Assembly: GCF_964019745.1 (NCBI RefSeq)
Contig: NZ_OZ026462.1
Span: forward strand, 60,001 to 92,000
Reading direction: 5' to 3'
Length of the DNA: 32,000 bases
From: Candidatus Saccharimonadota bacterium
Lineage (GTDB): Bacteria > Pseudomonadota > Gammaproteobacteria > Burkholderiales > Burkholderiaceae
Shown here: positions 9,589 to 30,371 of the stretch, piece after piece
Numbering within the stretch: the first letter of the stretch is position 1
Layout of the letters: each line of letters opens with the position of its first letter
Program-made: the position numbers and the translations under genes
The notes under the pieces: generated by a model
Database searches by the model: none
What the model was told of the DNA's origin: nothing
What the model saw: the letters and a program-made list of their open reading frames with translations, nothing else

Positions 9589-9612
9589 ATAATATTTATT
9601 ATATAAAAATAT

Positions 9613-10058
9613 ATGAAAAAAAAAAATAAAATATATATTAATTATTATAATAAATATATAAATAAAATTATACCTTATTTTATAATATATAAATGTGGGA
9701 ATTTAATTTTTAAAAAAAAAACAGAGATTTCAATTATTAATGTAAAAAAAAAAAAATTAAAAAACTTAATTTTAAATATAGAAAAAAAAAAAAAATAACT
9801 AATATTTTAACTTTTACATATATAAAAAAAAAAAATATAAAAGCTGATATAATTTTATGTATAAAAAAAATAATACAAGAAGCAAAAAAACAAAAAAAAA
9901 CACTTTTATTTCATATAATTCATTTAATAATACATGGGATGTTACATATACAAGGTTATAAACATAATAATAAAAAAACTTTAAAAAAAATGAAAAAAAA
10001 AGAAATAAAAATTTTAAAAAAAATAGGATTTAAAAATCCATATATTATTAATTTTTAA
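9613..10058 (+). pseudogene. ybeY: endoribonuclease YbeY, split by a frameshift inside an A13 run (9744..9756)
   Basis: Frame of 9613 gives ...TEISIINVKKKK, then runs to a stop at 9796..9798. The frame ending at stop 10056..10058 gives IKKLNFKYRKKKKITNILTF...ADIILC...HLIIHGMLHIQGYKH. The latter carries the YbeY TNVLSF-like motif and the HxxxHxxxxxH zinc site. Adding one A to the run fuses the halves into about 148 aa. Confidence 0.78.
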
Positions 10059-10091
10059 TATAATATATTATAAATTATATTATTTTAAAAA

Positions 10092-10967
10092 ATGATAACT
10101 ATACAAAAAATTATATTTAAACTTAATAAATTTTGGGAAAAATATGGATGTATATTATTACAACCATATGATATAGAAATAGGTGCCGGTACATCACATA
10201 CAGCAACTTTTTTAAAAGCTATAGGACCAGAACATTGGAAAGCTGCTTATATACAAAATTCTAGAAGACCTAAAGATGGAAAATATGGAAAAAATTTTAA
10301 TAAAATTCAAAATTATTTTCAATATCAAGTAGTTTTAAAACCTACTCCAGATAATTTTTTAGATTTATATATAAATTCATTAAAATTTTTAAAATTAAAT
10401 TTTAAAAATAATGATATTAGATTTATAGAAGATAATTGGAAAAATCCAACATTAGGTTCATGGGGGGTAGGATGGGAAGTAAAATTAAATGGTATAGAAA
10501 TAACACAAATAACATATTTTCAACAAGTTGGTTGTATAAATTGTAATCCAATATTAGGTGAAATTACCTATGGCATAGAAAGACTTGCTATGCATTTACA
10601 AAATAATAAAAATATTAACAATTTAATTTGGACAGAAATTAAAAATAAAAATAAAATTAAAAAAATATTATATAAAGAATTATTTATTCAAAATGAATAT
10701 GAATTTTCATTATTAAATTTTAATTTTTATAATAAAAAAATTTTATTAGAAACATTTAATATATATGAAAAAGAATCAAAAAGATTAATTAATTTATTAT
10801 TAATTTTTCCATCATATGAAATGATGTTAAAATCAACACATATTTTTAATTTATTAGAAGCTACTGGTACTATTTCTGCAATAGAAAAAATTAATTATAT
10901 ATATCGTATTAAAAAAATATCTTGTAAAATTGCAAAATTATATCTTTCTTTAAAAAATAAAAAATAA
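10092..10967 (+). CDS. glyQ: glycyl-tRNA synthetase alpha subunit (intact copy)
   Basis: 291 aa. FWEKYGCILLQPYDIEIGAGTSHTATFL and WGVGWEVKLNGIEITQITYFQQVG are highly conserved GlyQ blocks. Confidence 0.96.
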   Translation: MITIQKIIFKLNKFWEKYGCILLQPYDIEIGAGTSHTATFLKAIGPEHWKAAYIQNSRRPKDGKYGKNFNKIQNYFQYQVVLKPTPDNFLDLYINSLKFLKLNFKNNDIRFIEDNWKNPTLGSWGVGWEVKLNGIEITQITYFQQVGCINCNPILGEITYGIERLAMHLQNNKNINNLIWTEIKNKNKIKKILYKELFIQNEYEFSLLNFNFYNKKILLETFNIYEKESKRLINLLLIFPSYEMMLKSTHIFNLLEATGTISAIEKINYIYRIKKISCKIAKLYLSLKNKK

Positions 10968-11002
10968 ATAAATTTATATATAATATATTTTAATAATTTA
11001 AA

Positions 11003-13114
11003 ATGATAAAAAAAAATCTTTTGATAGAATTAATGACAGAAGAACTACCTCATAAAATTTTATTAAATATAGAAAATACATTTACAAAAAATATTATTTA
11101 TAAATTACAATTAGAAAATTTTATAAAAAAAAATTCATATATAGAAACATATTCAACAATACGACGAATAGGTATATATATAAAAAATGTAAAAAAAAAA
11201 TCTAAAAGTTTAATTTTTAAAAAAAAAATATTATCTAAAAATATAGCCTTTGATAAAAATAATCGTCCAACTTTTTTTTTAATAAAAAAAATTTCAATAA
11301 TTTCTAAAATTAATAATTTTTATAAAATTTCTATTAATAAAATAAAAAAAAAAAATAAAAATAATAAAAAGGAATTATTTTTTTATTATAAAAAAAAAAA
11401 TATATATTTAAAATATTTTTTAAAAAATGTATTAGAAAATTCTATAAAAAAATTATCTATTTATAGATTTATGAAATATAATAAAAAAATAAATAAAAAT
11501 TTCATAAAAATTATTGAATTTATTAGACCAATAAAAAATTTATTAATTATTTTTGGTAAAAAAATAATTTCATTAAATATTCTTCATATTAATTCAAATT
11601 CTATAACTTATGGTAATAGATTTATTAAAAATAATATTTTAAATATTAATAATGCAAATAATTATTCTAAAATATTAATAAAAGAAGGTAAAGTAATACC
11701 AAACTTTTCTCAAAGATTATTAACAATAAAAAATCTTTTATTTAAAAAAGCTAAAAATTATAAATTATCTATAAACAAAAAATTATTAAAAGAAATTACA
11801 GCTCTTATTGAATGGCCAACAGTATATAAATGTGCGTTTAATAAAGTTTTTTTAAAACTTCCAAAAAAATGTATAAAAATAATAATTCAAAATTTTCAAA
11901 AACATTTTATTTTAAAAAATAAATATAATAAAATATGTAAATATTTTCTTATAGTTTGTAACTCTAACACTAAAAATTTTAAAAATATTATTCAAGAATA
12001 TGAAAAATCAATTTTTTATATATTATCAGAAATAAAAATCTTTTTTAAAAAAGATAAAAAAACTACATTATATAAAAAAAAAAAATTATTAAAAAATATT
12101 ATTTATCATAATAAATTAGGAAATCAATTACAAAGAATAAAAAGAATAAAAAAAATATCAATAGATATTTCCAATATTATTAAATGTAATAAATATTTGC
12201 TAAAAAGAAGTTTATCTCTATTTAAAATTGATCTTACTACTAAAATAGTAAAAAAATTTCCAATTTTACAGGGAATTATAGGAAAATATTATGCAATATA
12301 TGATGGAGAAAATAAAAAAGTTGCTAAATCTATATTAGAACATTATTTACCTAAATTTTTTAATGATAAATTACCATTTTTAAAAATTTCAATAATAATT
12401 TCTATAGCAGACAAATTAGAAATTATAATTGGTATTTGGAATATAGGTTTTAAACCTAAAAATAATAAAGATCCTTTTAAAATTAAAAGAAATATAATTG
12501 GATTATTACAAATATTAATAGAAAAAAAATTATTATTATCTATACCAATGTTAATAAAACAAACTATTAATAGTTTTAAAAAAAATAATATTTTTAAGAA
12601 TCAATATATGAATATATATAATTTTATTTATAAAAAATTAAATAAATTATTATTAAAATATAATTTTAAAAAAAATGAAATAAAATCTATAATTTCTAAA
12701 AAACCAAAAATTATTGGAGATATAATTTATAAATTAAAAACATTAAAAATAATTAATTTTTCAATAAAATATAATAATTTATTTATTTCTAATAAAAGAA
12801 TTATAAATATTTTAAAAAAATTTAATAAAAATATTTATATAAATAAAAAATATTTAAAAAAAAAATATGAAATATATATTTATAATAAAATTATAAAAAC
12901 ACAAAAATTAATTAATATTAATATTAAAAAAAAAAAATATATTAATATATTTAATAAATTATTAATTTTTAATAAATATATAGAAAAATTTTTTAAAAAA
13001 ATAAAAATAAATTCAAAAAATATAAATTATAAAAATAATAGAAAAGCAATATTAAAAAATATATATAATATGTTAAATAAAATTATAAATTTAAATTTTT
13101 TAAAAAAAAATTAA
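11003..13114 (+). CDS. glyS: glycyl-tRNA synthetase beta subunit (copy 1)
   Basis: 703 aa directly after glyQ. The N-terminus LLIELMTEELP and LQGIIGKYYA are GlyS-like. Otherwise it is very diverged and Lys-rich. Confidence 0.85.
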   Translation: MIKKNLLIELMTEELPHKILLNIENTFTKNIIYKLQLENFIKKNSYIETYSTIRRIGIYIKNVKKKSKSLIFKKKILSKNIAFDKNNRPTFFLIKKISIISKINNFYKISINKIKKKNKNNKKELFFYYKKKNIYLKYFLKNVLENSIKKLSIYRFMKYNKKINKNFIKIIEFIRPIKNLLIIFGKKIISLNILHINSNSITYGNRFIKNNILNINNANNYSKILIKEGKVIPNFSQRLLTIKNLLFKKAKNYKLSINKKLLKEITALIEWPTVYKCAFNKVFLKLPKKCIKIIIQNFQKHFILKNKYNKICKYFLIVCNSNTKNFKNIIQEYEKSIFYILSEIKIFFKKDKKTTLYKKKKLLKNIIYHNKLGNQLQRIKRIKKISIDISNIIKCNKYLLKRSLSLFKIDLTTKIVKKFPILQGIIGKYYAIYDGENKKVAKSILEHYLPKFFNDKLPFLKISIIISIADKLEIIIGIWNIGFKPKNNKDPFKIKRNIIGLLQILIEKKLLLSIPMLIKQTINSFKKNNIFKNQYMNIYNFIYKKLNKLLLKYNFKKNEIKSIISKKPKIIGDIIYKLKTLKIINFSIKYNNLFISNKRIINILKKFNKNIYINKKYLKKKYEIYIYNKIIKTQKLININIKKKKYINIFNKLLIFNKYIEKFFKKIKINSKNINYKNNRKAILKNIYNMLNKIINLNFLKKN

Positions 13115-13893
13115 TTTTTTTTTTTTTTTAAAAAATTTGATAATAAAATATATTGTTTTATTGTTAACATTTCTGGTCTTAATTTAGGATTAATTTTTAA
13201 AAAAATAAAATCTTCTTTAGAAAAAAAATTACTAACACAATTAAAAATAAATTTTCTACGATTTGAAAAGGCTTTAATTAAAATTTTATTTAAAAAAAAT
13301 ATATTATATTTAATAAGTATTTTTTTTGAAATTATACGAACCATAGCTGATTTTACTTTAGGCTTAGGTTTAAAAGATTCAGGATTAATTAAAAATAATA
13401 ATTTTATTTTAAAATGAATCTGTAACATAATAGATAAACGACCAAATTTTTTATTTCCTGGTTTAGCTATCATACGATCCACAAATTCTTTTTGTAAAAT
13501 AAAATGTTGATCTATTAATAAATTGGAAAATTGTATAAGATAAAATAAAAGTAAACTAGAAATATTATATGGTAAACTTCCTATTAATCTAATTTTTTTT
13601 TTAAATCTATTAAAAAAATTTAAAAAATTAAAATTTAAAACATCTAAAAAATAAATTTTTATTTTTTTTAAAAAAAATTTTTTTTTTAAAAAATTAACTA
13701 AATTTTTGTCTATTTCTATAACATAAATTTTTTTTAAAAATTTTAATAAATATTTAGTAATATTACCATATCCAGGACCAATTTCAATAACTAAATCATC
13801 ATTTTTAAAATCTAAAAATGAAATTATTTTTTTTATAATATTTTTATCTATTAAAAAATTTTGAGAAAAATTTTTTTTTTTATTTTTTTTCAT
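13111..13893 (-). CDS. rsmA: 16S rRNA (adenine1518/1519-N6) dimethyltransferase (copy 1)
   Basis: 260 aa. NFSQNFLIDKNII and the SAM-binding VIEIGPGYGNIT are typical KsgA/RsmA motifs. Confidence 0.9.
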   Translation of the reverse strand: MKKNKKKNFSQNFLIDKNIIKKIISFLDFKNDDLVIEIGPGYGNITKYLLKFLKKIYVIEIDKNLVNFLKKKFFLKKIKIYFLDVLNFNFLNFFNRFKKKIRLIGSLPYNISSLLLFYLIQFSNLLIDQHFILQKEFVDRMIAKPGNKKFGRLSIMLQIHFKIKLLFLINPESFKPKPKVKSAMVRIISKKILIKYNIFFLNKILIKAFSNRRKFIFNCVSNFFSKEDFIFLKINPKLRPEMLTIKQYILLSNFLKKKKN

Positions 13894-14049
13894 ATTTTTT
13901 ATATATAAAATTATATTTTTACTTAAAATATTAAAATATTATTTTTATATTATTTATATAAAAAATATATAAATATTTTATATTTATAATAATTTATATT
14001 ATTATATATAATTAATAAAAAAAAAATTAAATATAATTTTTATTTAAAA

Positions 14050-15147
14050 ATGAAAAAAAAAAAAATAATATTAGGAATGTCTGGAGGTATAGATTCTTCA
14101 GTATCAGCTTGGATTTTAAAAGAACAAGGATATGAAGTAATAGGTTTATTTATGAATAATTGGAATGATAATAAAAAAAAAAATAATTTTTGTAATAATA
14201 AAAAAGATTTAATTGATGCTATAAGCATAGCAGATATTATAGGAATAAATATTAAAATAGTAAATTTTTCAAAAGAATATAAAAAATATATTTTTTCAAA
14301 TTTTATAAAAGAATATAAAAAAGGTAATACACCTAATCCAGATATAACTTGTAATTCTATAATTAAATTTAATTTTTTTTTAAATTATGCAAATTCTATC
14401 TTAAAAACTAATTTAATTGCCACAGGACATTATGCTAGAATAAAAAAAACTTTAAAAGGTAAATATAAATTATTAAAAGCTAAAGATTTAAATAAAGATC
14501 AAAGTTATTTTTTATATAGATTAAATCAAAAACAATTATCAAAAAGTATCTTTCCTATAGGAAATTTCTATAAAACAAAAATTAAAGAAATTGCTAAAAA
14601 ACTTAAATTTCCTAATGTAAACAAAAAAAATTCTACTGGGATTTGTTTTATAGGTAAAAGACCATTTAGAAAATTTCTAAATAATTATATAAATTATAAT
14701 CCTGGGCCAATAAAAACTACAAGTGGAATAACAATTTCAAAACATATAGGATTAAGTTTTTATACTATAGGTCAAAGAAAAGGTATAGGTATTGGTGGTA
14801 TAAAAAAAAATATATATATAAAAAAAAAAAATACTCCTTGGTATGTTGCTAAAAAAAATATAAAAAAAAATATTTTATATGTTGTACAAGGTCATAATCA
14901 TCCATGGTTATTATCATATAAAATTATAATATATAAAACTCATTGGATATCAGGTAAAGCACCTAAAAACTTTTCAATATTAAAAGCAAAAATTAGATAT
15001 AGACAAAAAGATTCAAAATGTATTATATATTATTATAACAAACTATATATTTTATATTTTATAGAACCTCAATGGGGTGCAGCTAAAGGACAATCAATAG
15101 TATTATATAATAAAAATATATGTTTAGGAGGAGGGATTATTAAATAA
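14050..15147 (+). CDS. mnmA: tRNA 2-thiouridine(34) synthase (copy 1)
   Basis: 365 aa. PP-loop GMSGGIDSSVSAWIL, plus TPNPDITCN, ATGHYAR and KDQSYFL motifs. Confidence 0.95.
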   Translation: MKKKKIILGMSGGIDSSVSAWILKEQGYEVIGLFMNNWNDNKKKNNFCNNKKDLIDAISIADIIGINIKIVNFSKEYKKYIFSNFIKEYKKGNTPNPDITCNSIIKFNFFLNYANSILKTNLIATGHYARIKKTLKGKYKLLKAKDLNKDQSYFLYRLNQKQLSKSIFPIGNFYKTKIKEIAKKLKFPNVNKKNSTGICFIGKRPFRKFLNNYINYNPGPIKTTSGITISKHIGLSFYTIGQRKGIGIGGIKKNIYIKKKNTPWYVAKKNIKKNILYVVQGHNHPWLLSYKIIIYKTHWISGKAPKNFSILKAKIRYRQKDSKCIIYYYNKLYILYFIEPQWGAAKGQSIVLYNKNICLGGGIIK

Positions 15148-15220
15148 TAATATACAAATTAATTATATATATAACAATATTTTTTATTTATTAAAATATA
15201 TTTTAAAAAGGAAAATTATT

Positions 15221-15685
15221 ATGAATAATTTAAAAATTATTAATTTATTAAATGATCAATTAATTAATGAATTAATAGCAAGTAATCAATATTTTTTAAA
15301 TTCTATAATTTATAAACATTTAGGTTATAAAAAAATTGCATTAAAAGAAAAAAATGAATCAAAAGAAGAATTAAAACATGCAAAAAAAATTTTAAATAGA
15401 ATATTAACTCTTGAAGGTAAACCCAATATTGAAATTTTAAATAAATTTATATTTAGTAATAATATAGAAGAAATTTTAAAAAATAATTTATATTTTGAAA
15501 AAAAAATTCAAAAAAATCTTAAAAAAAATATACTTATATGTGAAAAAAAATATGATTATATCACAAGAATACTTTTAGAAGAAATTTTATATGATTCTAT
15601 TAAACATATAAAATGGATAAAATTTGAATTAAATATTATTAATATAATTGGAATTAAAGATTACTTAAAAATACAAATTAATTAA
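15221..15685 (+). CDS. bfr: bacterioferritin-like protein (copy 1)
   Basis: 154 aa, colinear with E. coli Bfr as I recall it (INLLNDQLINELIASNQYFL; EELKHA; ILTLEGKPN; KHIKWI). An AAGGA ribosome-binding site lies upstream (about 15208). Confidence 0.8.
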   Translation: MNNLKIINLLNDQLINELIASNQYFLNSIIYKHLGYKKIALKEKNESKEELKHAKKILNRILTLEGKPNIEILNKFIFSNNIEEILKNNLYFEKKIQKNLKKNILICEKKYDYITRILLEEILYDSIKHIKWIKFELNIINIIGIKDYLKIQIN

Positions 15686-15707
15686 TTTTTAAAATTATAA
15701 AGATAAA

Positions 15708-17240
15708 TTAAATATTTCGTAAATAAGGAAATAAAATTACATCTTTTATACTAAAAGAATTTGTTAAAATCATAACTAAACGATCAATACCAATACCACA
15801 TCCAGCTGTAGGTGGCATACCATATTCTAAAGCATTAATATAATCTTTATCATAATATTTATTATTTTTAAATGTTTTTTTTTTAATATTTTTAATATTA
15901 ATATTTTTATGTTTTATAATTTGTTTTAAAAATCTTTTAGATTGTTCTTTAGAATCATTTAATTCAGAAAAACCATTAGCTATTTCACAACCATAAATAA
16001 ATAATTCAAAACGTTCAGTTATATTTTTATTAATATTTGATAAACGTGCTAAAGGAGAAACAGAAACTGGATAATCTATAATATAAGTAGGATTAATTAT
16101 TTTAGATTTTGTTGTTATATCAAATAAAATTAATTGCATTTGATATAAATCCATATCTAAATTTTTAATAATTTTTTTATTTAATTTTAAACTAATTTTT
16201 TTTAATTCTAAATATAAAAAAGAAATATTATTTAATTGAAATATAGTATAATTTGTATAATTTAATATAGCATCAATAATAGTAAATCTTTTAAAAGGTT
16301 TAGAAAAATCTATTTTTTTTTCACGATATTTTATTATATTTTTTTTATATAAAAAAAAAGTTAATTTTTTAAAAATTTTTTCAATAAAAATCATTAACCA
16401 TTTATAATCAACATAAGTTGAATAAAATTCTAACATAGTAAATTCAGGATTATGAAAAATAGATAAACCTTCATTACGAAAATTTCTATTAATTTCAAAA
16501 ATTCTATTAAAACCACCAACAATTAATTTTTTTAAAAATAATTCTGGAGAAACTCTTAAAAACATTTTCATATTTAAAGAATTATGATATGTAATAAATG
16601 GTTTAGCTGAAGCTCCTCCAGGAATTTTATGAAACATTGGTGTTTCAACTTCTAAAAAATCATTTTTTTCTAAAAATTTTCTAATAAAAGAAATAATAGA
16701 AGATCTAATTTTAAAAACTAATCTTACTTTAGGATTTATAATTAAATCTAAATATCGTTTACGATATTTAATTTCTTTATTTGATAAACCATAAAATTTA
16801 CTTGAAATTTGATGAATAGATTTATTAATAAATAAAATTTTATTAACTTTTATAGTTAATTCATTTGTATTAGTTTTAAATAAAATTCCACATACTCCAA
16901 TAATATCTCCTAAATCATAATTTTTAAAATTATTAAATCCAATTTTACCTAATATATTATAATTAATATATATTTGAATTTTTCCATTTAAAAAAGATCC
17001 TGAAAAATCACTAATTAAAGCAAAAATTGCTTTTCCAAAAATTCGTTTAGTAAATATTCTACCGGCTATAGAAACATTAATTTTTTTTTTTTCTAAAATT
17101 AATTTATCAAAATTATTATATTTTTTACATAAAAAATATGTTTTATTTTTAGGAATAAAATTATTAGGAAAATTAAAACCTTGAGAAATCATTAAATCTA
17201 ATTTTTTTTTTCTATTATTAATTTCTGAAAAAATATTCAT
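15708..17240 (-). CDS. lysS: lysyl-tRNA synthetase, class II (copy 1)
   Basis: 510 aa. YRKRYLDLI, FLEVETPMFH, RNEGLSIFHNPEFTMLEFY and GMPPTAGCGIGIDRLVMILT are class II LysRS motifs. Confidence 0.95.
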   Translation of the reverse strand: MNIFSEINNRKKKLDLMISQGFNFPNNFIPKNKTYFLCKKYNNFDKLILEKKKINVSIAGRIFTKRIFGKAIFALISDFSGSFLNGKIQIYINYNILGKIGFNNFKNYDLGDIIGVCGILFKTNTNELTIKVNKILFINKSIHQISSKFYGLSNKEIKYRKRYLDLIINPKVRLVFKIRSSIISFIRKFLEKNDFLEVETPMFHKIPGGASAKPFITYHNSLNMKMFLRVSPELFLKKLIVGGFNRIFEINRNFRNEGLSIFHNPEFTMLEFYSTYVDYKWLMIFIEKIFKKLTFFLYKKNIIKYREKKIDFSKPFKRFTIIDAILNYTNYTIFQLNNISFLYLELKKISLKLNKKIIKNLDMDLYQMQLILFDITTKSKIINPTYIIDYPVSVSPLARLSNINKNITERFELFIYGCEIANGFSELNDSKEQSKRFLKQIIKHKNINIKNIKKKTFKNNKYYDKDYINALEYGMPPTAGCGIGIDRLVMILTNSFSIKDVILFPYLRNI

Positions 17241-17297
17241 TTTTTTATAAATTAAATAAATTTTTAAAATTATATTAAAAATAAATATAAATATATT

Positions 17298-18037
17298 TTA
17301 TACTTTTAATTTTAAAAATTCATAAATAAAATTATCTATTTTACCATCTAAAGTACCTTTTATATCATTAGTTTGATAATTAGTTCTTAAATCTTTAATA
17401 AATGATTTATCTAAAATATAAGATCTAATTTGTTGCCCCCAACTTATATTAGATTTCAAATTTTCAATTTTTTTACGTTTAATTAATTGTTTATTTTTTT
17501 CAAAATTATATAATTTATTTTTTAACATATTCCATGCAGTAACTTTATTACGATATTGACTTCGACTATTTTGACATTTAACTACTATTCCAGTAGGAAT
17601 ATGAGTTAAACGAACAGCAGAATCAGTTTTATTAACATGTTGTCCACCAGCACCTGAAGATTTATAAGTATCAATTTTTACACTAGAAATATCAATTGTA
17701 ATTTTTATTAAATTTTCATAATCAGGATATACAAATAAACTAGCAAAAGAAGTATGTCTATTTTTTGAAAAATTAAATGGAGATTTTCTTACTAAACGAT
17801 GAATACCTGTTTCAGTTTTTAAAAAACCAAATGCATATTTACCTTTTACTTTAATTGTTGCTAATCTTATACCATTTTTTTCACCATAAGATTTATGCAT
17901 AATTTCAGTTTTAAATTTTTTTCTCTCACAATATTTTAAATATTGACGTAATAATATAAAAGACCAATCTTCTGCATCTATACCTCCAGCACCAGCTTTT
18001 ATATCTATAAAACAATTTTTTTTATCAATAGAATTAT
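17298..18037 (-). pseudogene. prfB: peptide chain release factor 2, 5'-truncated duplicate fragment (C-terminal ~246 codons)
   Basis: Identical to 25186..25925 of the full gene. It ends abruptly at the duplication junction. The first in-frame ATG is at 17900 (the 200-aa ORF in the track, which contains the SPF and GGQ motifs). Confidence 0.88.
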
Positions 18038-18855
18038 GTATATTATTACAACCATATGATATAGAAATAGGTGCCGGTACATCACATACAGCAACTTTTT
18101 TAAAAGCTATAGGACCAGAACATTGGAAAGCTGCTTATATACAAAATTCTAGAAGACCTAAAGATGGAAAATATGGAAAAAATTTTAATAAAATTCAAAA
18201 TTATTTTCAATATCAAGTAGTTTTAAAACCTACTCCAGATAATTTTTTAGATTTATATATAAATTCATTAAAATTTTTAAAATTAAATTTTAAAAATAAT
18301 GATATTAGATTTATAGAAGATAATTGGAAAAATCCAACATTAGGTTCATGGGGGGTAGGATGGGAAGTAAAATTAAATGGTATAGAAATAACACAAATAA
18401 CATATTTTCAACAAGTTGGTTGTATAAATTGTAATCCAATATTAGGTGAAATTACCTATGGCATAGAAAGACTTGCTATGCATTTACAAAATAATAAAAA
18501 TATTAACAATTTAATTTGGACAGAAATTAAAAATAAAAATAAAATTAAAAAAATATTATATAAAGAATTATTTATTCAAAATGAATATGAATTTTCATTA
18601 TTAAATTTTAATTTTTATAATAAAAAAATTTTATTAGAAACATTTAATATATATGAAAAAGAATCAAAAAGATTAATTAATTTATTATTAATTTTTCCAT
18701 CATATGAAATGATGTTAAAATCAACACATATTTTTAATTTATTAGAAGCTACTGGTACTATTTCTGCAATAGAAAAAATTAATTATATATATCGTATTAA
18801 AAAAATATCTTGTAAAATTGCAAAATTATATCTTTCTTTAAAAAATAAAAAATAA
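18036..18855 (+). pseudogene. glyQ: glyQ duplicate lacking the first ~18 codons and the start codon
   Basis: Identical to 10148..10967. The frame is open back to 17947 but has no ATG before 18478 (my own translation). The ORF-track entry 18478..18855 is only the tail of this fragment. Confidence 0.88.
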
Positions 18856-18890
18856 ATAAATTTATATATAATATATTTTAATAATTTAAA

Positions 18891-21002
18891 ATGATAAAAA
18901 AAAATCTTTTGATAGAATTAATGACAGAAGAACTACCTCATAAAATTTTATTAAATATAGAAAATACATTTACAAAAAATATTATTTATAAATTACAATT
19001 AGAAAATTTTATAAAAAAAAATTCATATATAGAAACATATTCAACAATACGACGAATAGGTATATATATAAAAAATGTAAAAAAAAAATCTAAAAGTTTA
19101 ATTTTTAAAAAAAAAATATTATCTAAAAATATAGCCTTTGATAAAAATAATCGTCCAACTTTTTTTTTAATAAAAAAAATTTCAATAATTTCTAAAATTA
19201 ATAATTTTTATAAAATTTCTATTAATAAAATAAAAAAAAAAAATAAAAATAATAAAAAGGAATTATTTTTTTATTATAAAAAAAAAAATATATATTTAAA
19301 ATATTTTTTAAAAAATGTATTAGAAAATTCTATAAAAAAATTATCTATTTATAGATTTATGAAATATAATAAAAAAATAAATAAAAATTTCATAAAAATT
19401 ATTGAATTTATTAGACCAATAAAAAATTTATTAATTATTTTTGGTAAAAAAATAATTTCATTAAATATTCTTCATATTAATTCAAATTCTATAACTTATG
19501 GTAATAGATTTATTAAAAATAATATTTTAAATATTAATAATGCAAATAATTATTCTAAAATATTAATAAAAGAAGGTAAAGTAATACCAAACTTTTCTCA
19601 AAGATTATTAACAATAAAAAATCTTTTATTTAAAAAAGCTAAAAATTATAAATTATCTATAAACAAAAAATTATTAAAAGAAATTACAGCTCTTATTGAA
19701 TGGCCAACAGTATATAAATGTGCGTTTAATAAAGTTTTTTTAAAACTTCCAAAAAAATGTATAAAAATAATAATTCAAAATTTTCAAAAACATTTTATTT
19801 TAAAAAATAAATATAATAAAATATGTAAATATTTTCTTATAGTTTGTAACTCTAACACTAAAAATTTTAAAAATATTATTCAAGAATATGAAAAATCAAT
19901 TTTTTATATATTATCAGAAATAAAAATCTTTTTTAAAAAAGATAAAAAAACTACATTATATAAAAAAAAAAAATTATTAAAAAATATTATTTATCATAAT
20001 AAATTAGGAAATCAATTACAAAGAATAAAAAGAATAAAAAAAATATCAATAGATATTTCCAATATTATTAAATGTAATAAATATTTGCTAAAAAGAAGTT
20101 TATCTCTATTTAAAATTGATCTTACTACTAAAATAGTAAAAAAATTTCCAATTTTACAGGGAATTATAGGAAAATATTATGCAATATATGATGGAGAAAA
20201 TAAAAAAGTTGCTAAATCTATATTAGAACATTATTTACCTAAATTTTTTAATGATAAATTACCATTTTTAAAAATTTCAATAATAATTTCTATAGCAGAC
20301 AAATTAGAAATTATAATTGGTATTTGGAATATAGGTTTTAAACCTAAAAATAATAAAGATCCTTTTAAAATTAAAAGAAATATAATTGGATTATTACAAA
20401 TATTAATAGAAAAAAAATTATTATTATCTATACCAATGTTAATAAAACAAACTATTAATAGTTTTAAAAAAAATAATATTTTTAAGAATCAATATATGAA
20501 TATATATAATTTTATTTATAAAAAATTAAATAAATTATTATTAAAATATAATTTTAAAAAAAATGAAATAAAATCTATAATTTCTAAAAAACCAAAAATT
20601 ATTGGAGATATAATTTATAAATTAAAAACATTAAAAATAATTAATTTTTCAATAAAATATAATAATTTATTTATTTCTAATAAAAGAATTATAAATATTT
20701 TAAAAAAATTTAATAAAAATATTTATATAAATAAAAAATATTTAAAAAAAAAATATGAAATATATATTTATAATAAAATTATAAAAACACAAAAATTAAT
20801 TAATATTAATATTAAAAAAAAAAAATATATTAATATATTTAATAAATTATTAATTTTTAATAAATATATAGAAAAATTTTTTAAAAAAATAAAAATAAAT
20901 TCAAAAAATATAAATTATAAAAATAATAGAAAAGCAATATTAAAAAATATATATAATATGTTAAATAAAATTATAAATTTAAATTTTTTAAAAAAAAATT
21001 AA
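18891..21002 (+). CDS. glyS: glycyl-tRNA synthetase beta subunit (copy 2, identical)
   Basis: The 703-aa protein is identical to the product of 11003..13114 at an offset of 7888. Confidence 0.85.
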   Translation: MIKKNLLIELMTEELPHKILLNIENTFTKNIIYKLQLENFIKKNSYIETYSTIRRIGIYIKNVKKKSKSLIFKKKILSKNIAFDKNNRPTFFLIKKISIISKINNFYKISINKIKKKNKNNKKELFFYYKKKNIYLKYFLKNVLENSIKKLSIYRFMKYNKKINKNFIKIIEFIRPIKNLLIIFGKKIISLNILHINSNSITYGNRFIKNNILNINNANNYSKILIKEGKVIPNFSQRLLTIKNLLFKKAKNYKLSINKKLLKEITALIEWPTVYKCAFNKVFLKLPKKCIKIIIQNFQKHFILKNKYNKICKYFLIVCNSNTKNFKNIIQEYEKSIFYILSEIKIFFKKDKKTTLYKKKKLLKNIIYHNKLGNQLQRIKRIKKISIDISNIIKCNKYLLKRSLSLFKIDLTTKIVKKFPILQGIIGKYYAIYDGENKKVAKSILEHYLPKFFNDKLPFLKISIIISIADKLEIIIGIWNIGFKPKNNKDPFKIKRNIIGLLQILIEKKLLLSIPMLIKQTINSFKKNNIFKNQYMNIYNFIYKKLNKLLLKYNFKKNEIKSIISKKPKIIGDIIYKLKTLKIINFSIKYNNLFISNKRIINILKKFNKNIYINKKYLKKKYEIYIYNKIIKTQKLININIKKKKYINIFNKLLIFNKYIEKFFKKIKINSKNINYKNNRKAILKNIYNMLNKIINLNFLKKN

Positions 21003-21781
21003 TTTTTTTTTTTTTTTAAAAAATTTGATAATAAAATATATTGTTTTATTGTTAACATTTCTGGTCTTAATTTAGGATTAATTTTTAAAAAAATAAAATC
21101 TTCTTTAGAAAAAAAATTACTAACACAATTAAAAATAAATTTTCTACGATTTGAAAAGGCTTTAATTAAAATTTTATTTAAAAAAAATATATTATATTTA
21201 ATAAGTATTTTTTTTGAAATTATACGAACCATAGCTGATTTTACTTTAGGCTTAGGTTTAAAAGATTCAGGATTAATTAAAAATAATAATTTTATTTTAA
21301 AATGAATCTGTAACATAATAGATAAACGACCAAATTTTTTATTTCCTGGTTTAGCTATCATACGATCCACAAATTCTTTTTGTAAAATAAAATGTTGATC
21401 TATTAATAAATTGGAAAATTGTATAAGATAAAATAAAAGTAAACTAGAAATATTATATGGTAAACTTCCTATTAATCTAATTTTTTTTTTAAATCTATTA
21501 AAAAAATTTAAAAAATTAAAATTTAAAACATCTAAAAAATAAATTTTTATTTTTTTTAAAAAAAATTTTTTTTTTAAAAAATTAACTAAATTTTTGTCTA
21601 TTTCTATAACATAAATTTTTTTTAAAAATTTTAATAAATATTTAGTAATATTACCATATCCAGGACCAATTTCAATAACTAAATCATCATTTTTAAAATC
21701 TAAAAATGAAATTATTTTTTTTATAATATTTTTATCTATTAAAAAATTTTGAGAAAAATTTTTTTTTTTATTTTTTTTCAT
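20999..21781 (-). CDS. rsmA: 16S rRNA dimethyladenosine transferase (copy 2, identical)
   Basis: The protein is identical to the product of 13111..13893. Confidence 0.9.
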   Translation of the reverse strand: MKKNKKKNFSQNFLIDKNIIKKIISFLDFKNDDLVIEIGPGYGNITKYLLKFLKKIYVIEIDKNLVNFLKKKFFLKKIKIYFLDVLNFNFLNFFNRFKKKIRLIGSLPYNISSLLLFYLIQFSNLLIDQHFILQKEFVDRMIAKPGNKKFGRLSIMLQIHFKIKLLFLINPESFKPKPKVKSAMVRIISKKILIKYNIFFLNKILIKAFSNRRKFIFNCVSNFFSKEDFIFLKINPKLRPEMLTIKQYILLSNFLKKKKN

Positions 21782-21937
21782 ATTTTTTATATATAAAATT
21801 ATATTTTTACTTAAAATATTAAAATATTATTTTTATATTATTTATATAAAAAATATATAAATATTTTATATTTATAATAATTTATATTATTATATATAAT
21901 TAATAAAAAAAAAATTAAATATAATTTTTATTTAAAA

Positions 21938-23035
21938 ATGAAAAAAAAAAAAATAATATTAGGAATGTCTGGAGGTATAGATTCTTCAGTATCAGCTTGG
22001 ATTTTAAAAGAACAAGGATATGAAGTAATAGGTTTATTTATGAATAATTGGAATGATAATAAAAAAAAAAATAATTTTTGTAATAATAAAAAAGATTTAA
22101 TTGATGCTATAAGCATAGCAGATATTATAGGAATAAATATTAAAATAGTAAATTTTTCAAAAGAATATAAAAAATATATTTTTTCAAATTTTATAAAAGA
22201 ATATAAAAAAGGTAATACACCTAATCCAGATATAACTTGTAATTCTATAATTAAATTTAATTTTTTTTTAAATTATGCAAATTCTATCTTAAAAACTAAT
22301 TTAATTGCCACAGGACATTATGCTAGAATAAAAAAAACTTTAAAAGGTAAATATAAATTATTAAAAGCTAAAGATTTAAATAAAGATCAAAGTTATTTTT
22401 TATATAGATTAAATCAAAAACAATTATCAAAAAGTATCTTTCCTATAGGAAATTTCTATAAAACAAAAATTAAAGAAATTGCTAAAAAACTTAAATTTCC
22501 TAATGTAAACAAAAAAAATTCTACTGGGATTTGTTTTATAGGTAAAAGACCATTTAGAAAATTTCTAAATAATTATATAAATTATAATCCTGGGCCAATA
22601 AAAACTACAAGTGGAATAACAATTTCAAAACATATAGGATTAAGTTTTTATACTATAGGTCAAAGAAAAGGTATAGGTATTGGTGGTATAAAAAAAAATA
22701 TATATATAAAAAAAAAAAATACTCCTTGGTATGTTGCTAAAAAAAATATAAAAAAAAATATTTTATATGTTGTACAAGGTCATAATCATCCATGGTTATT
22801 ATCATATAAAATTATAATATATAAAACTCATTGGATATCAGGTAAAGCACCTAAAAACTTTTCAATATTAAAAGCAAAAATTAGATATAGACAAAAAGAT
22901 TCAAAATGTATTATATATTATTATAACAAACTATATATTTTATATTTTATAGAACCTCAATGGGGTGCAGCTAAAGGACAATCAATAGTATTATATAATA
23001 AAAATATATGTTTAGGAGGAGGGATTATTAAATAA
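21938..23035 (+). CDS. mnmA: tRNA 2-thiouridine(34) synthase (copy 2, identical)
   Basis: The protein is identical to the product of 14050..15147. Confidence 0.95.
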   Translation: MKKKKIILGMSGGIDSSVSAWILKEQGYEVIGLFMNNWNDNKKKNNFCNNKKDLIDAISIADIIGINIKIVNFSKEYKKYIFSNFIKEYKKGNTPNPDITCNSIIKFNFFLNYANSILKTNLIATGHYARIKKTLKGKYKLLKAKDLNKDQSYFLYRLNQKQLSKSIFPIGNFYKTKIKEIAKKLKFPNVNKKNSTGICFIGKRPFRKFLNNYINYNPGPIKTTSGITISKHIGLSFYTIGQRKGIGIGGIKKNIYIKKKNTPWYVAKKNIKKNILYVVQGHNHPWLLSYKIIIYKTHWISGKAPKNFSILKAKIRYRQKDSKCIIYYYNKLYILYFIEPQWGAAKGQSIVLYNKNICLGGGIIK

Positions 23036-23108
23036 TAATATACAAATTAATTATATATATAACAATATTTTTTATTTATTAAAATATATTTTAAAAAGGA
23101 AAATTATT

Positions 23109-23573
23109 ATGAATAATTTAAAAATTATTAATTTATTAAATGATCAATTAATTAATGAATTAATAGCAAGTAATCAATATTTTTTAAATTCTATAATTTA
23201 TAAACATTTAGGTTATAAAAAAATTGCATTAAAAGAAAAAAATGAATCAAAAGAAGAATTAAAACATGCAAAAAAAATTTTAAATAGAATATTAACTCTT
23301 GAAGGTAAACCCAATATTGAAATTTTAAATAAATTTATATTTAGTAATAATATAGAAGAAATTTTAAAAAATAATTTATATTTTGAAAAAAAAATTCAAA
23401 AAAATCTTAAAAAAAATATACTTATATGTGAAAAAAAATATGATTATATCACAAGAATACTTTTAGAAGAAATTTTATATGATTCTATTAAACATATAAA
23501 ATGGATAAAATTTGAATTAAATATTATTAATATAATTGGAATTAAAGATTACTTAAAAATACAAATTAATTAA
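23109..23573 (+). CDS. bfr: bacterioferritin-like protein (copy 2, identical)
   Basis: The protein is identical to the product of 15221..15685. Confidence 0.8.
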   Translation: MNNLKIINLLNDQLINELIASNQYFLNSIIYKHLGYKKIALKEKNESKEELKHAKKILNRILTLEGKPNIEILNKFIFSNNIEEILKNNLYFEKKIQKNLKKNILICEKKYDYITRILLEEILYDSIKHIKWIKFELNIINIIGIKDYLKIQIN

Positions 23574-23595
23574 TTTTTAAAATTATAAAGATAAA

Positions 23596-25128
23596 TTAAA
23601 TATTTCGTAAATAAGGAAATAAAATTACATCTTTTATACTAAAAGAATTTGTTAAAATCATAACTAAACGATCAATACCAATACCACATCCAGCTGTAGG
23701 TGGCATACCATATTCTAAAGCATTAATATAATCTTTATCATAATATTTATTATTTTTAAATGTTTTTTTTTTAATATTTTTAATATTAATATTTTTATGT
23801 TTTATAATTTGTTTTAAAAATCTTTTAGATTGTTCTTTAGAATCATTTAATTCAGAAAAACCATTAGCTATTTCACAACCATAAATAAATAATTCAAAAC
23901 GTTCAGTTATATTTTTATTAATATTTGATAAACGTGCTAAAGGAGAAACAGAAACTGGATAATCTATAATATAAGTAGGATTAATTATTTTAGATTTTGT
24001 TGTTATATCAAATAAAATTAATTGCATTTGATATAAATCCATATCTAAATTTTTAATAATTTTTTTATTTAATTTTAAACTAATTTTTTTTAATTCTAAA
24101 TATAAAAAAGAAATATTATTTAATTGAAATATAGTATAATTTGTATAATTTAATATAGCATCAATAATAGTAAATCTTTTAAAAGGTTTAGAAAAATCTA
24201 TTTTTTTTTCACGATATTTTATTATATTTTTTTTATATAAAAAAAAAGTTAATTTTTTAAAAATTTTTTCAATAAAAATCATTAACCATTTATAATCAAC
24301 ATAAGTTGAATAAAATTCTAACATAGTAAATTCAGGATTATGAAAAATAGATAAACCTTCATTACGAAAATTTCTATTAATTTCAAAAATTCTATTAAAA
24401 CCACCAACAATTAATTTTTTTAAAAATAATTCTGGAGAAACTCTTAAAAACATTTTCATATTTAAAGAATTATGATATGTAATAAATGGTTTAGCTGAAG
24501 CTCCTCCAGGAATTTTATGAAACATTGGTGTTTCAACTTCTAAAAAATCATTTTTTTCTAAAAATTTTCTAATAAAAGAAATAATAGAAGATCTAATTTT
24601 AAAAACTAATCTTACTTTAGGATTTATAATTAAATCTAAATATCGTTTACGATATTTAATTTCTTTATTTGATAAACCATAAAATTTACTTGAAATTTGA
24701 TGAATAGATTTATTAATAAATAAAATTTTATTAACTTTTATAGTTAATTCATTTGTATTAGTTTTAAATAAAATTCCACATACTCCAATAATATCTCCTA
24801 AATCATAATTTTTAAAATTATTAAATCCAATTTTACCTAATATATTATAATTAATATATATTTGAATTTTTCCATTTAAAAAAGATCCTGAAAAATCACT
24901 AATTAAAGCAAAAATTGCTTTTCCAAAAATTCGTTTAGTAAATATTCTACCGGCTATAGAAACATTAATTTTTTTTTTTTCTAAAATTAATTTATCAAAA
25001 TTATTATATTTTTTACATAAAAAATATGTTTTATTTTTAGGAATAAAATTATTAGGAAAATTAAAACCTTGAGAAATCATTAAATCTAATTTTTTTTTTC
25101 TATTATTAATTTCTGAAAAAATATTCAT
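23596..25128 (-). CDS. lysS: lysyl-tRNA synthetase, class II (copy 2, identical)
   Basis: The protein is identical to the product of 15708..17240. This copy keeps the native prfB-lysS arrangement. Confidence 0.95.
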   Translation of the reverse strand: MNIFSEINNRKKKLDLMISQGFNFPNNFIPKNKTYFLCKKYNNFDKLILEKKKINVSIAGRIFTKRIFGKAIFALISDFSGSFLNGKIQIYINYNILGKIGFNNFKNYDLGDIIGVCGILFKTNTNELTIKVNKILFINKSIHQISSKFYGLSNKEIKYRKRYLDLIINPKVRLVFKIRSSIISFIRKFLEKNDFLEVETPMFHKIPGGASAKPFITYHNSLNMKMFLRVSPELFLKKLIVGGFNRIFEINRNFRNEGLSIFHNPEFTMLEFYSTYVDYKWLMIFIEKIFKKLTFFLYKKNIIKYREKKIDFSKPFKRFTIIDAILNYTNYTIFQLNNISFLYLELKKISLKLNKKIIKNLDMDLYQMQLILFDITTKSKIINPTYIIDYPVSVSPLARLSNINKNITERFELFIYGCEIANGFSELNDSKEQSKRFLKQIIKHKNINIKNIKKKTFKNNKYYDKDYINALEYGMPPTAGCGIGIDRLVMILTNSFSIKDVILFPYLRNI

Positions 25129-25185
25129 TTTTTTATAAATTAAATAAATTTTTAAAATTATATTAAAAATAAATATAAATATATT

Positions 25186-26292
25186 TTATACTTTTAATTT
25201 TAAAAATTCATAAATAAAATTATCTATTTTACCATCTAAAGTACCTTTTATATCATTAGTTTGATAATTAGTTCTTAAATCTTTAATAAATGATTTATCT
25301 AAAATATAAGATCTAATTTGTTGCCCCCAACTTATATTAGATTTCAAATTTTCAATTTTTTTACGTTTAATTAATTGTTTATTTTTTTCAAAATTATATA
25401 ATTTATTTTTTAACATATTCCATGCAGTAACTTTATTACGATATTGACTTCGACTATTTTGACATTTAACTACTATTCCAGTAGGAATATGAGTTAAACG
25501 AACAGCAGAATCAGTTTTATTAACATGTTGTCCACCAGCACCTGAAGATTTATAAGTATCAATTTTTACACTAGAAATATCAATTGTAATTTTTATTAAA
25601 TTTTCATAATCAGGATATACAAATAAACTAGCAAAAGAAGTATGTCTATTTTTTGAAAAATTAAATGGAGATTTTCTTACTAAACGATGAATACCTGTTT
25701 CAGTTTTTAAAAAACCAAATGCATATTTACCTTTTACTTTAATTGTTGCTAATCTTATACCATTTTTTTCACCATAAGATTTATGCATAATTTCAGTTTT
25801 AAATTTTTTTCTCTCACAATATTTTAAATATTGACGTAATAATATAAAAGACCAATCTTCTGCATCTATACCTCCAGCACCAGCTTTTATATCTATAAAA
25901 CAATTTTTTTTATCAATAGAATTATTAAAAATTTTTTTAAATTCTATTAATATAATTTTTTTTTTTATTTTTTTTATTTCTAATAAAATAAAATCTAATA
26001 AAGAAAAATTTTTTTCTAAAAAAGTAAGTAAAATTAATTCTTTTATATTTTTTATTTCTAAATTAATTAATTTAATTTTATTTAAAATTTTTTCAATTTT
26101 TTTTTTTTTATTTAAAAAAAAAATTTTTTTTTTATATTGATTATAAATTAAAGGTTTTAATAATTCATTATTAATTTTTTTAATTTTTTTTTTTTTTTTT
26201 TTAATATTTAAAATATTACATAATTTTACAAAAAGTAATAATATCTTTTTAAAAGATATTTTTAATATTTCTTTTTTTTTTAAAAATATCAT
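25186..26292 (-). CDS. prfB: peptide chain release factor 2 (full length, single ORF)
   Basis: 368 aa. The SPF tripeptide (RKSPFNF) specifies RF2; the GGQ motif (SSGAGGQHVNKTDSAVRLTHIPTG) is present. There is no internal in-frame stop or +1 frameshift site. Confidence 0.92.
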   Translation of the reverse strand: MIFLKKKEILKISFKKILLLFVKLCNILNIKKKKKKIKKINNELLKPLIYNQYKKKIFFLNKKKKIEKILNKIKLINLEIKNIKELILLTFLEKNFSLLDFILLEIKKIKKKIILIEFKKIFNNSIDKKNCFIDIKAGAGGIDAEDWSFILLRQYLKYCERKKFKTEIMHKSYGEKNGIRLATIKVKGKYAFGFLKTETGIHRLVRKSPFNFSKNRHTSFASLFVYPDYENLIKITIDISSVKIDTYKSSGAGGQHVNKTDSAVRLTHIPTGIVVKCQNSRSQYRNKVTAWNMLKNKLYNFEKNKQLIKRKKIENLKSNISWGQQIRSYILDKSFIKDLRTNYQTNDIKGTLDGKIDNFIYEFLKLKV

Positions 26293-26500
26293 AAAAATAA
26301 AAATTGTATAAATTTTATTTAAATAAATTTTTTTAATATATATTAATATTTTTTAAAAATATATTTTATAAATATTTATATATTTAATAAATATATATTT
26401 AATATATTAATTAATAATTAATATTTTTTTATAAATATAATTATAAAAATTAATATTTTTATTATAAATAAATATTTATTAAATTTTTAATAAATAAAAT

Positions 26501-26680
26501 TATTTAATATTATTTAATATTATTTAATATTATTTAATATTATTTAATATTATTTAATATTATTTAATATTATTTAATATTATTTAATATTATTTAATAT
26601 TATTTAATATTATTTAATATTATTTAATATTATTTAATATTATTTAATATTATTTAATATTATTTAATATTATTTAATAT
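26501..26680. repeat. perfect 10-bp microsatellite (tatttaatat) x 18
   Basis: Counted directly: 18 uninterrupted identical units over 180 bp, with degenerate unit-like sequence on both flanks. Confidence 0.97.
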
Positions 26681-27318
26681 TAATAAATCAAAAATTATAT
26701 TCTTTGAATAATAAAGACTACTAATTATAGCTATCATATCTACTCCAAATTTAAATAAAGGTAAAAAATTTTTTTTATTTATACCACCAATTGCTACAAT
26801 TGGAACAAATATTTTTTTTTTTATTAAAGATATTAACTTTAAATTTGTTTTAAATAAATATTTTTTAATGTTTGAAAAATAAAACCCTCCTAAAGAAATA
26901 TAATTTGCACCATTAAGAAAATTTTTCTTAGCAAAATATAATGAATTATAACAAGAAGAACCAATAATTTTTTTATTTCCTAAAATATATCTAGCTTCAA
27001 AAATAGAAAAATCTTTATAACCTAAATGAACACCATCAGCATTAATCTGAATACATAAATCAATATCATTATTAATTATTAAAGGAATATTATTATTATG
27101 ACATAATTTTAATAAAAATATTGCTTGTTTTTTTTGAATATCTTTTTTAGAAATTTTATTTCTATATTGAATTAATGAACATTATTTCTATATTGAATTA
27201 ATGAACAACCACCTTTAATTATTTTTTTAGTTATTAAAATTAATTTTTTTGTATCATTCCAATCAGGAGTAATAATATATAAACCTTTATATATATATTT
27301 ATTTTTTAAATTGTTCAT
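26660..27318 (-). pseudogene. thiE: thiamine-phosphate synthase disrupted by a 26-bp tandem duplication
   Basis: My own codon-by-codon translation starts at ATG 27318..27316: MNNLKNKYIYKGLYIITPD...GGCSLIQYRNNVH, then a stop at 27172..27174. Removing one 26-bp unit gives an uninterrupted 210-aa ThiE. That product has NADGVHLG, IGSSCYN, GANYISLGGFYFS, VPIVAIGGIN and GVDMIAIISSLY motifs. The stop is at 26660..26662. Confidence 0.88.
27156..27207. repeat. perfect 26-bp tandem duplication (ttatttctatattgaattaatgaaca x 2) inside thiE
   Basis: Units 27156..27181 and 27182..27207 are identical when read directly from the sequence. Confidence 0.95.
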
Positions 27319-27334
27319 AACAATAAAAATAAAT

Positions 27335-28415: not shown

Positions 28416-30224
<1,809 letters not shown>

Positions 30225-30371
30225 TTAAAATAAAAAATTTTATTTATTTTAAAAAAAAAATTATTTATAATATCATTGATAATGATATTTTTTTTAAAAA
30301 AAAAAAAAAATATTAATTTTCAATATATTTTTTAAAAAAACAAAAATAATTAAAAATTATTAAAATTTAAA

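Follow-up and report, generated by a model that had tools for sequence, protein, structure and literature searches.

A probably genuine 7,888-bp tandem duplication of housekeeping genes in the Zinderia endosymbiont of Aphrophora alni

Introduction

Obligate insect symbionts are the textbook case of frozen genome structure, and the verified exceptions, Portiera and Tremblaya, inform on how replication and recombination proceed after the loss of most repair genes. In Portiera of Bemisia tabaci, Southern hybridisation showed that the number of tandem copies of a 6.1-kb block ranges from 0 to 4 or more within individual insects (Sloan & Moran 2013, PMC3673631). That genome also has enlarged spacers and microsatellites, and contains perfect repeats that gene conversion maintains (PMC3673631). 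The same paper attributes perfect repeats to Tremblaya princeps (McCutcheon & von Dohlen 2011, as cited in PMC3673631). Here we analyse a 7,888-bp head-to-tail tandem repeat in a stretch of 32,000 nucleotides (hereafter, the window; positions 60,001 to 92,000 of the forward strand of contig NZ_OZ026462.1, assembly GCF_964019745.1). This DNA belongs to 'Candidatus Zinderia endosymbiont of Aphrophora alni', represented in RefSeq by a single 336,619-bp contig; the G+C content of the window is 16.4%. The variable Portiera array is the closest precedent for this structure, the repeats of Tremblaya and the trpEG amplification of Buchnera being more distant. We conclude that the Zinderia duplication is probably real, and that it is not unprecedented among insect symbionts.

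The repeat had been noticed in a reading made from the letters of the window alone (the sequence-only reading), which described it as a head-to-tail duplication that doubles five housekeeping genes of an endosymbiont whose genome is strongly reduced. This structural description stands. The expression 'minimal genome', used in the same reading, needs correcting: a 336.6-kb contig, though small, is not among the most minimal ones. The accompanying premise, that reduced genomes are structurally static, is too strong given the copy-number range of the 6.1-kb Portiera block (PMC3673631).

Results

Base-by-base comparison of window positions 10148-18035 (unit copy 1) and 18036-25923 (unit copy 2) revealed 0 mismatches and 0 indels over 7,888 bp, and a repeat search of the window likewise gave a spacing of 7,888 throughout. 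The two copies stand head to tail with no spacer, and there is a single novel join, 18035|18036 (junction region 18030-18041), where the truncated 5' ends of a prfB and a glyQ fragment abut, the fragments diverging from one another. The match has no leftward extension, and extends rightward by 2 bp: the AT at 25924-25925, in the right flank, is the same as that at the unit start (10148-10149 and 18036-18037). This 2-bp microhomology allows three equivalent placements of the breakpoints. All 52 long homopolymers of the unit (50 A/T runs of at least 8 and 2 G/C runs of at least 5) agree between the copies, the T15 run at 13115 and the A13 run at 14053 included. An exact repeat of this length cannot have a chance origin.

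Genes were named by NCBIfam profiles at or above curated cut-offs, which confirmed GlyQ, GlyS, RsmA, MnmA, bacterioferritin, LysS, and release factor 2 (RF2). The unit starts at the third base of glyQ codon 19 and ends after the 246 C-terminal codons of prfB, stop included. Five complete genes, glyS, rsmA, mnmA, bfr, and lysS, are present twice, while the boundary genes, glyQ and prfB, are each present as one intact and one truncated copy. The sequence-only reading had listed the same five products as doubled (with a 'Bfr-like protein'), and had given the 7,888-bp block starting at 10148, its recurrence, an end coordinate of 25925, which correctly takes in the AT extension, and the identity of slippage-prone homopolymers; all of this is borne out. 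It had left room for synonymous differences and had proposed a full alignment of the units, which contains no synonymous or other difference in 7,888 bp. What needs qualifying is the doubling itself: all five genes are doubled, but an own upstream spacer is doubled with the gene only for rsmA, mnmA, and bfr.

In unit copy 1, intact glyQ (10092-10967, + strand; NF006827, 397.7 bits against a cut-off of 369), the first 56 nt of which lie outside the unit, is followed after a 35-nt spacer by glyS (11003-13114, +; TIGR00211, 495 bits). Next come rsmA, also known as ksgA (13111-13893, -; TIGR00755, 225.5 bits), mnmA (14050-15147, +; NF001138, 424.8 bits), bfr, coding for bacterioferritin (15221-15685, +; TIGR00754, 130.4 bits, cut-off 125.55), and lysS (15708-17240, -; NF001756, 587 bits), which lies downstream of truncated prfB and is without the region upstream of prfB. 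The prfB 3' fragment (17298-18035, -) comprises the C-terminal 245 codons and the stop (246 of 369 codons); it keeps the SPF and GGQ motifs, has its first ATG at 17900, and matches the TIGR00020 profile at positions 158-353 only. Unit copy 2 opens with a glyQ fragment (18036-18855, +) that is without the first 56 nt, and glyS copy 2 (18891-21002, +) lies downstream of this promoterless fragment. Identical to their first copies, like glyS, are rsmA (20999-21781, -), mnmA (21938-23035, +), bfr (23109-23573, +), and lysS (23596-25128, -), the last separated by a 57-nt spacer from intact prfB (25186-26292, -). The latter codes for 368 aa in a single open frame with no frameshift site (TIGR00020, 410.8 bits, cut-off 370).

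The fragments that meet at the junction have neither a start codon nor an upstream region: no ATG, GTG, or TTG was found near 18035|18036 in the frame of either. RefSeq calls a 262-aa GlyQ (WP_339045127.1) from the decapitated glyQ copy; by our own mapping it begins at an ATA codon at 18067 and spans 18067-18855, and its accession is out of series with those of its neighbours, WP_339045041-048.

The glyQ-glyS and prfB-lysS pairs are operons in E. coli. If the same holds here, glyS copy 2 and lysS copy 1 would each be cut off from the start of the gene upstream and from the promoter region of the presumed operon (glyQS and prfB-lysS, respectively). A promoter scan around the junction gave 22 promoter-like sites, with 25.6 +/- 5.6 in shuffled sequences, and thus no excess; a terminator scan of the same region found none. 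Since promoter-like sites are no commoner than in shuffles, expression of the glyS and lysS copies from the headless operons cannot be judged. With only rsmA, mnmA, and bfr doubled together with their native upstream regions, any effect on gene dosage is probably minor, and the duplication itself is likely to be neutral or mildly deleterious. Adaptive dosage amplification was rejected as the main explanation on the grounds of gene content and the decapitated operons.

No transposase or integrase gene was found in the window, where every open reading frame (ORF) of at least 80 aa, as well as the 66-aa thiS, belongs to a housekeeping or biosynthesis family. Nor are there flanking direct repeats at the unit boundaries, which fall within glyQ and prfB and share only 2 bp. 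A mobile element or site-specific recombination was therefore rejected as the source of the duplication, no such genes or repeats being present. Both breakpoints do coincide with inverted repeats. The right one lies in a 34-nt quasi-palindrome (25915-25948) composed of a perfect 9-bp inverted repeat (25915-25923 and 25940-25948) and an inner 6-bp stem. The left 9-bp arm has its inner edge at the breakpoint, 25923|25924, and such edges account for 1.26% of the inter-base positions of the window. The left one lies in an inverted repeat (10142-10169) with 6-bp arms (10142-10147 and 10164-10169) and a 16-nt spacer, as at the right breakpoint. Here too the left arm ends, on its inner side, at the breakpoint (10147|10148), a coincidence that is weak alone, as edges of this kind make up 12.4% of positions. 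The joint chance of both coincidences, with the three breakpoint placements allowed for, is ~0.005 for a pattern that was spotted post hoc. Breakpoints at arm edges would be unexpected for random read ends, and to that extent may favour biology over an assembly artefact.

The account that we favour, and hold to be somewhat probable, is that of a genuine, young chromosomal tandem duplication, made by homology-independent template switching between two hairpin-prone sites that share a 2-bp microhomology. A nascent strand, having been extended in replication as far as prfB codon 122 (window positions 25923-25925), would release its template, use the 2-nt AT to re-pair with glyQ codon 19 (10148) on the sister template, and copy the 7,888 bp a second time. 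Such switching would be illegitimate, independent of homology, and both switch points would lie inside small inverted repeats able to form hairpins. The resulting structure retains every gene, with an intact copy each of glyQ and prfB, and two dead fragments diverge at the junction.

For Buchnera, a rate of ~1e-7 substitutions per site per year has reportedly been estimated (Moran et al. 2009). At a rate like this, two 7,888-bp copies would diverge by ~1.6e-3 changes per year, and zero differences would set an age bound of ~2,000 years. Duplex sequencing suggests faster mutation in Nasuia (PMC7952229); if this is true of the betaproteobacterial lineage, the bound becomes shorter. As an alternative to young age, the duplication may be carried by a fraction only of the numerous chromosomes in the symbiont population.

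The host, A. alni, was sequenced by the Darwin Tree of Life from one whole male, yielding a PacBio Revio HiFi run (ERR12015732; 68.61 Gb in 7.34 M reads, i.e., a mean read of ~9.3 kb) and a Hi-C run (ERR12035232), and the host assembly was made with hifiasm 0.16.1 (PMC11579584). The symbiont goes unmentioned in the A. alni genome note (PMC11579584), and no paper describing the A. alni Zinderia genome was found in the literature searched. With PacBio HiFi reads and hifiasm, a string-graph assembler, internal junctions are made only from real reads, which favours a real junction at 18035|18036.

The layout of the record bears on the same point. The window begins with hisG and atpCDGAHFEB (-), followed by tRNA-Met, miaB, and glyQ; after the second unit come the rest of prfB and then thiE (broken), thiG, thiS, and thiC (-). 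RefSeq accessions of the series WP_339045... follow this order, with hisG at 032, atpC at 033, atpB at 040, MiaB at 041, GlyQ at 042, GlyS at 043, RsmA at 044, MnmA at 045, Bfr at 046, LysS at 047, PrfB at 048, ThiG at 051, and ThiS at 052. From this co-linearity (WP_339045032-048, 051, 052) we conclude, indirectly, that the record has no origin inside the window and that the two copies are adjacent and internal.

Searches with LysS and GlyQ returned only short Logan contigs, which come from two related symbionts (ERR14886530 and SRR21069056). Two contigs from ERR14886530, 84-87% identical to the window, cover the boundaries: one (L004) runs unbroken from the upstream side through glyQ into glyS, across the glyQ-side boundary, and the other (L002) runs, also unbroken, from lysS across the prfB breakpoint into the 5' part of prfB. 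Contigs built from a de Bruijn graph stop at the edges of a tandem unit; as these contigs cross both boundaries, the ERR14886530 lineage must be single-copy. A different picture is seen in SRR21069056, where a contig (L003; SRR21069056_28863) that is 86% identical to the window (~14% diverged) and 92.8% identical to L002 has its first base aligned to window position 25924, within the 2-bp ambiguity of the breakpoint. We estimate the chance of a contig starting within 1 bp of the breakpoint at ~0.002-0.007, for contigs of ~2.5 kb. A start at the unit edge is the expected behaviour of a de Bruijn graph for a tandem unit, and in this respect counts for a real duplication. The comparison with sister strains that the sequence-only reading had proposed thus gives a divided result, with one relative single-copy over both boundaries and a contig of the other starting at the homologous prfB breakpoint.

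The start of L003 suggests that the prfB-side breakpoint may not be private to the A. alni symbiont, which we nevertheless consider quite unlikely. It could mark an old array shared with the ~14%-diverged Zinderia and kept letter-perfect by unequal exchange, or the site 25915-25948 could be a recurrent fragile site. The array would predate the split of the A. alni and SRR21069056 symbionts, would owe its uniformity to unequal exchange or gene conversion, and would have collapsed in ERR14886530. It would account for the position of the contig start, and also for the lack of a complete GlyQ or PrfB from SRR21069056 in protein searches, as expected if both genes were split at the unit edges; the partial prfB of L002 and L003 was likewise not returned by these searches, contig-end partials being apparently unsearchable. 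Perfect repeats maintained by gene conversion in Portiera, and those of Tremblaya, provide precedents (PMC3673631). The support for such an array is one contig end, however, and nothing distinguishes the position of the opposite end of L003, which shows that random contig ends do occur in SRR21069056. ERR14886530, the closer relative of SRR21069056, runs through both boundaries, and under active recombination a perfect 7.9-kb tandem should collapse fast, so that its persistence would need selection. In addition, an inverted-repeat arm (TAATTTT) begins in L002 exactly at the homologous breakpoint base; a local site that is fragile or hard to assemble could therefore explain the start of L003 without any shared duplication. 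On these grounds an array of such age appears improbable to us.

A de Bruijn break induced by the palindrome was rejected by reasoning as the cause of the L003 start: with k = 31 it predicts a contig start ~30 nt inside the palindrome, while L003 starts 9-10 nt from its end. Among GTDB representative genomes, the only match was an unrelated Paceibacter MnmA (39% identity), and JGI metagenomes searched with LysS gave no match. One further candidate (P0248/L006) was dropped as irrelevant, since it comes from a free-living bacterium of 60% GC.

Several observations weigh against a genuine young duplication made by template switching. Hairpin folds at the breakpoints are not stronger than those of shuffled sequence (z = -0.9 and -1.4), and the coincidences with inverted repeats and with the start of L003 were both noticed post hoc. 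ERR14886530, the nearest relative with data over both boundaries, being single-copy, the structure is without independent confirmation. The remaining points are those that an assembly artefact would share. If the symbiont were single-copy, and assembly of its circular genome had given a linear contig with a 7,888-bp overlap between the two ends, closing or rotating this contig untrimmed would yield the repeat. Complete identity of the copies, all 52 slippage-prone homopolymers included, is equally expected of such an overlap, and a 7.9-kb unit, shorter than the mean read of 9.3 kb, has the size expected of it. Mid-gene breakpoints with negligible microhomology are the pattern of arbitrary read ends, and a single-copy sister lineage fits as well.

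Against this artefact, the internal position of both copies in the deposited record means that an extra, undocumented rotation step would be needed; rotation before submission may have taken place. Hifiasm normally outputs closed circles without overlap. Random read ends, moreover, would not be expected to place both breakpoints at the edges of inverted-repeat arms or to make one of them coincide with a contig break in an independent sample, and perfect tandem duplications nearby (see below) show that the genome really makes them. The Portiera precedent, by analogy, may also be counted for a genuine duplication. We regard the untrimmed overlap as unlikely, though still plausible. The sequence-only reading had offered a recent event, homogenised copies, and an artefact of assembly or circularisation as possible origins. 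These were the right candidates, which the present analysis narrows without deciding among them; the simple form of the artefact, a record that begins and ends with the same 7.9 kb, is at odds with the co-linear accessions.

Tandem repeats map as circles, and a junction sequence alone cannot separate a two-copy chromosome from a single chromosomal copy accompanied by a free 7.9-kb circle that the assembler threaded into it. The same alternative required Southern hybridisation to be settled for the 6.1-kb Portiera block, and when tested, no circle was found (PMC3673631). In the present case, genes for replication or partition are lacking, nor is there a long repeat by which the unit could be excised and re-integrated, and HiFi reads longer than 8 kb should have linked flank, unit, and junction. 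A free circle is thus highly improbable.

Two further tandem repeats were found to the right of the duplication. A perfect 26-bp duplication (x2, 27156-27207; unit TTATTTCTATATTGAATTAATGAACA, + strand) frameshifts thiE (-, about 26683-27318), the N-terminal 48 codons of which (27172-27318, weak TMP-TENI match) are in a different frame from the remaining ~170 codons. Either thiE became a pseudogene very recently, while the remainder of the thiC-thiS-thiG-thiE cluster stayed intact, or the consensus sequence is wrong here. The 3' end of thiE and the thiE-prfB spacer are spanned by a perfect 10-bp microsatellite (ATTATTTAAT x18.4, 26499-26682), the degenerate form of which, according to Tandem Repeats Finder (TRF), reaches over 26332-26682; it is reminiscent of the way microsatellites have proliferated in the unstable genome of Portiera BT. 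Ten composition-matched Markov simulations produced no perfect tandem longer than 25 nt. Both repeats are thus far beyond chance, which indicates a replicon prone to slippage and duplication.

By their numbers, WP_339045049 and 050 must be two RefSeq proteins in the prfB-thiG interval (26293-27334), presumably pieces of thiE. A 600-aa thiC ORF (28416-30218) has no RefSeq accession, so the RefSeq model of thiC must differ. The window is 83% coding even with the junction fragments counted, which is loose for a genome of this size, and has spacers of up to 1.8 kb. No ORF of at least 80 aa and no Rfam match at gathering thresholds was found in the A+T-rich stretches 30219-32000, 9589-10091, and 1-596, and no thiamine pyrophosphate (TPP) riboswitch was found upstream of thiC.

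All 19 of the genes checked stop with TAA, tryptophan has TGG as its codon in 30 places, and TGA never occurs in frame. In Ca. Zinderia insecticola, with a genome of 0.21 Mb and 13.5% GC, UGA is read as Trp and prfB is absent. An intact prfB together with the lack of in-frame TGA indicates that the A. alni Zinderia, with its larger, 336.6-kb genome, seems to keep the standard code. Retention of RF2 and the lack of in-frame UGA, both seen in the window, bear on the timing of the UGA code change.

Discussion

If genuine, the Zinderia duplication would be a further, independent exception to the frozen structure of obligate symbiont genomes, in an ancient betaproteobacterial partner of Auchenorrhyncha, and its clean microhomology join and hairpin-associated breakpoints would point to template switching rather than to repeat-mediated recombination. 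A shared old array would imply concerted evolution of an essential-gene block in a symbiont thought to be without recombination, while a recurrent fragile site at the 25915-25948 quasi-palindrome would seed independent rearrangements in different spittlebug symbionts. Should the repeat be an artefact, the RefSeq genome carries an extra 7.9 kb and seven spurious gene models.

Like the array of Portiera, the Zinderia structure is a sequence-perfect chromosomal tandem repeat of several kb in an ancient obligate insect symbiont. The two genomes also share a looser organisation, the enlarged spacers and short tandem repeats of Portiera having counterparts in the 83% coding fraction, the 10-bp x18.4 array, and the 26-bp x2 duplication in thiE of the Zinderia window, and the same ambiguities, of circle versus tandem and of read depth, apply to both. 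The Portiera unit, however, has at its boundaries identical 349-bp direct repeats, through which recombination takes place, whereas the boundaries of the Zinderia unit share only 2 bp. Copy number has been shown to vary in Portiera, while the Zinderia tandem is known here from assembled sequence. Since the Zinderia unit carries essential translation genes, the zero-copy state seen in Portiera would be impossible.

Tremblaya resembles Zinderia in having identical multi-kb duplicates in a tiny symbiont genome; it is without most recombination genes, and is the classic case of homogenised copies. The Tremblaya copies are said to be dispersed and inverted, to include the rRNA operon, and to be common across mealybug lineages, while those of Zinderia are directly adjacent and at most putatively shared among lineages. 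Buchnera, another obligate insect symbiont, likewise has a gene block multiplied in tandem; its trpEG and leuABCD amplifications (Lai, Baumann & Baumann 1994) are reportedly plasmid-borne, present in several copies, and made up of rate-limiting amino-acid genes for host provisioning. In contrast to trpEG, the Zinderia unit consists of tRNA-synthetase, rRNA- and tRNA-modification, and iron-storage genes, in two copies, and with two operons cut from their upstream regions. This gene content and the two severed operons make an adaptive dosage reading weak.

Spontaneous RecA-independent tandem duplications are well known from the genetics of Salmonella and E. coli. The Zinderia repeat shares with them the head-to-tail arrangement, a single join with microhomology of 0 to a few bp, boundary genes that are each left intact once, and young, identical copies. 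In free-living bacteria, such duplications are quickly lost by RecA-dependent recombination between the copies and are seldom seen in reference genomes. In contrast, a tandem duplication could be retained or fixed in a symbiont whose recombination is weak and in which drift is strong. By this analogy, the mechanism of the Zinderia structure would match that of the ordinary RecA-independent tandem duplications of free-living bacteria.

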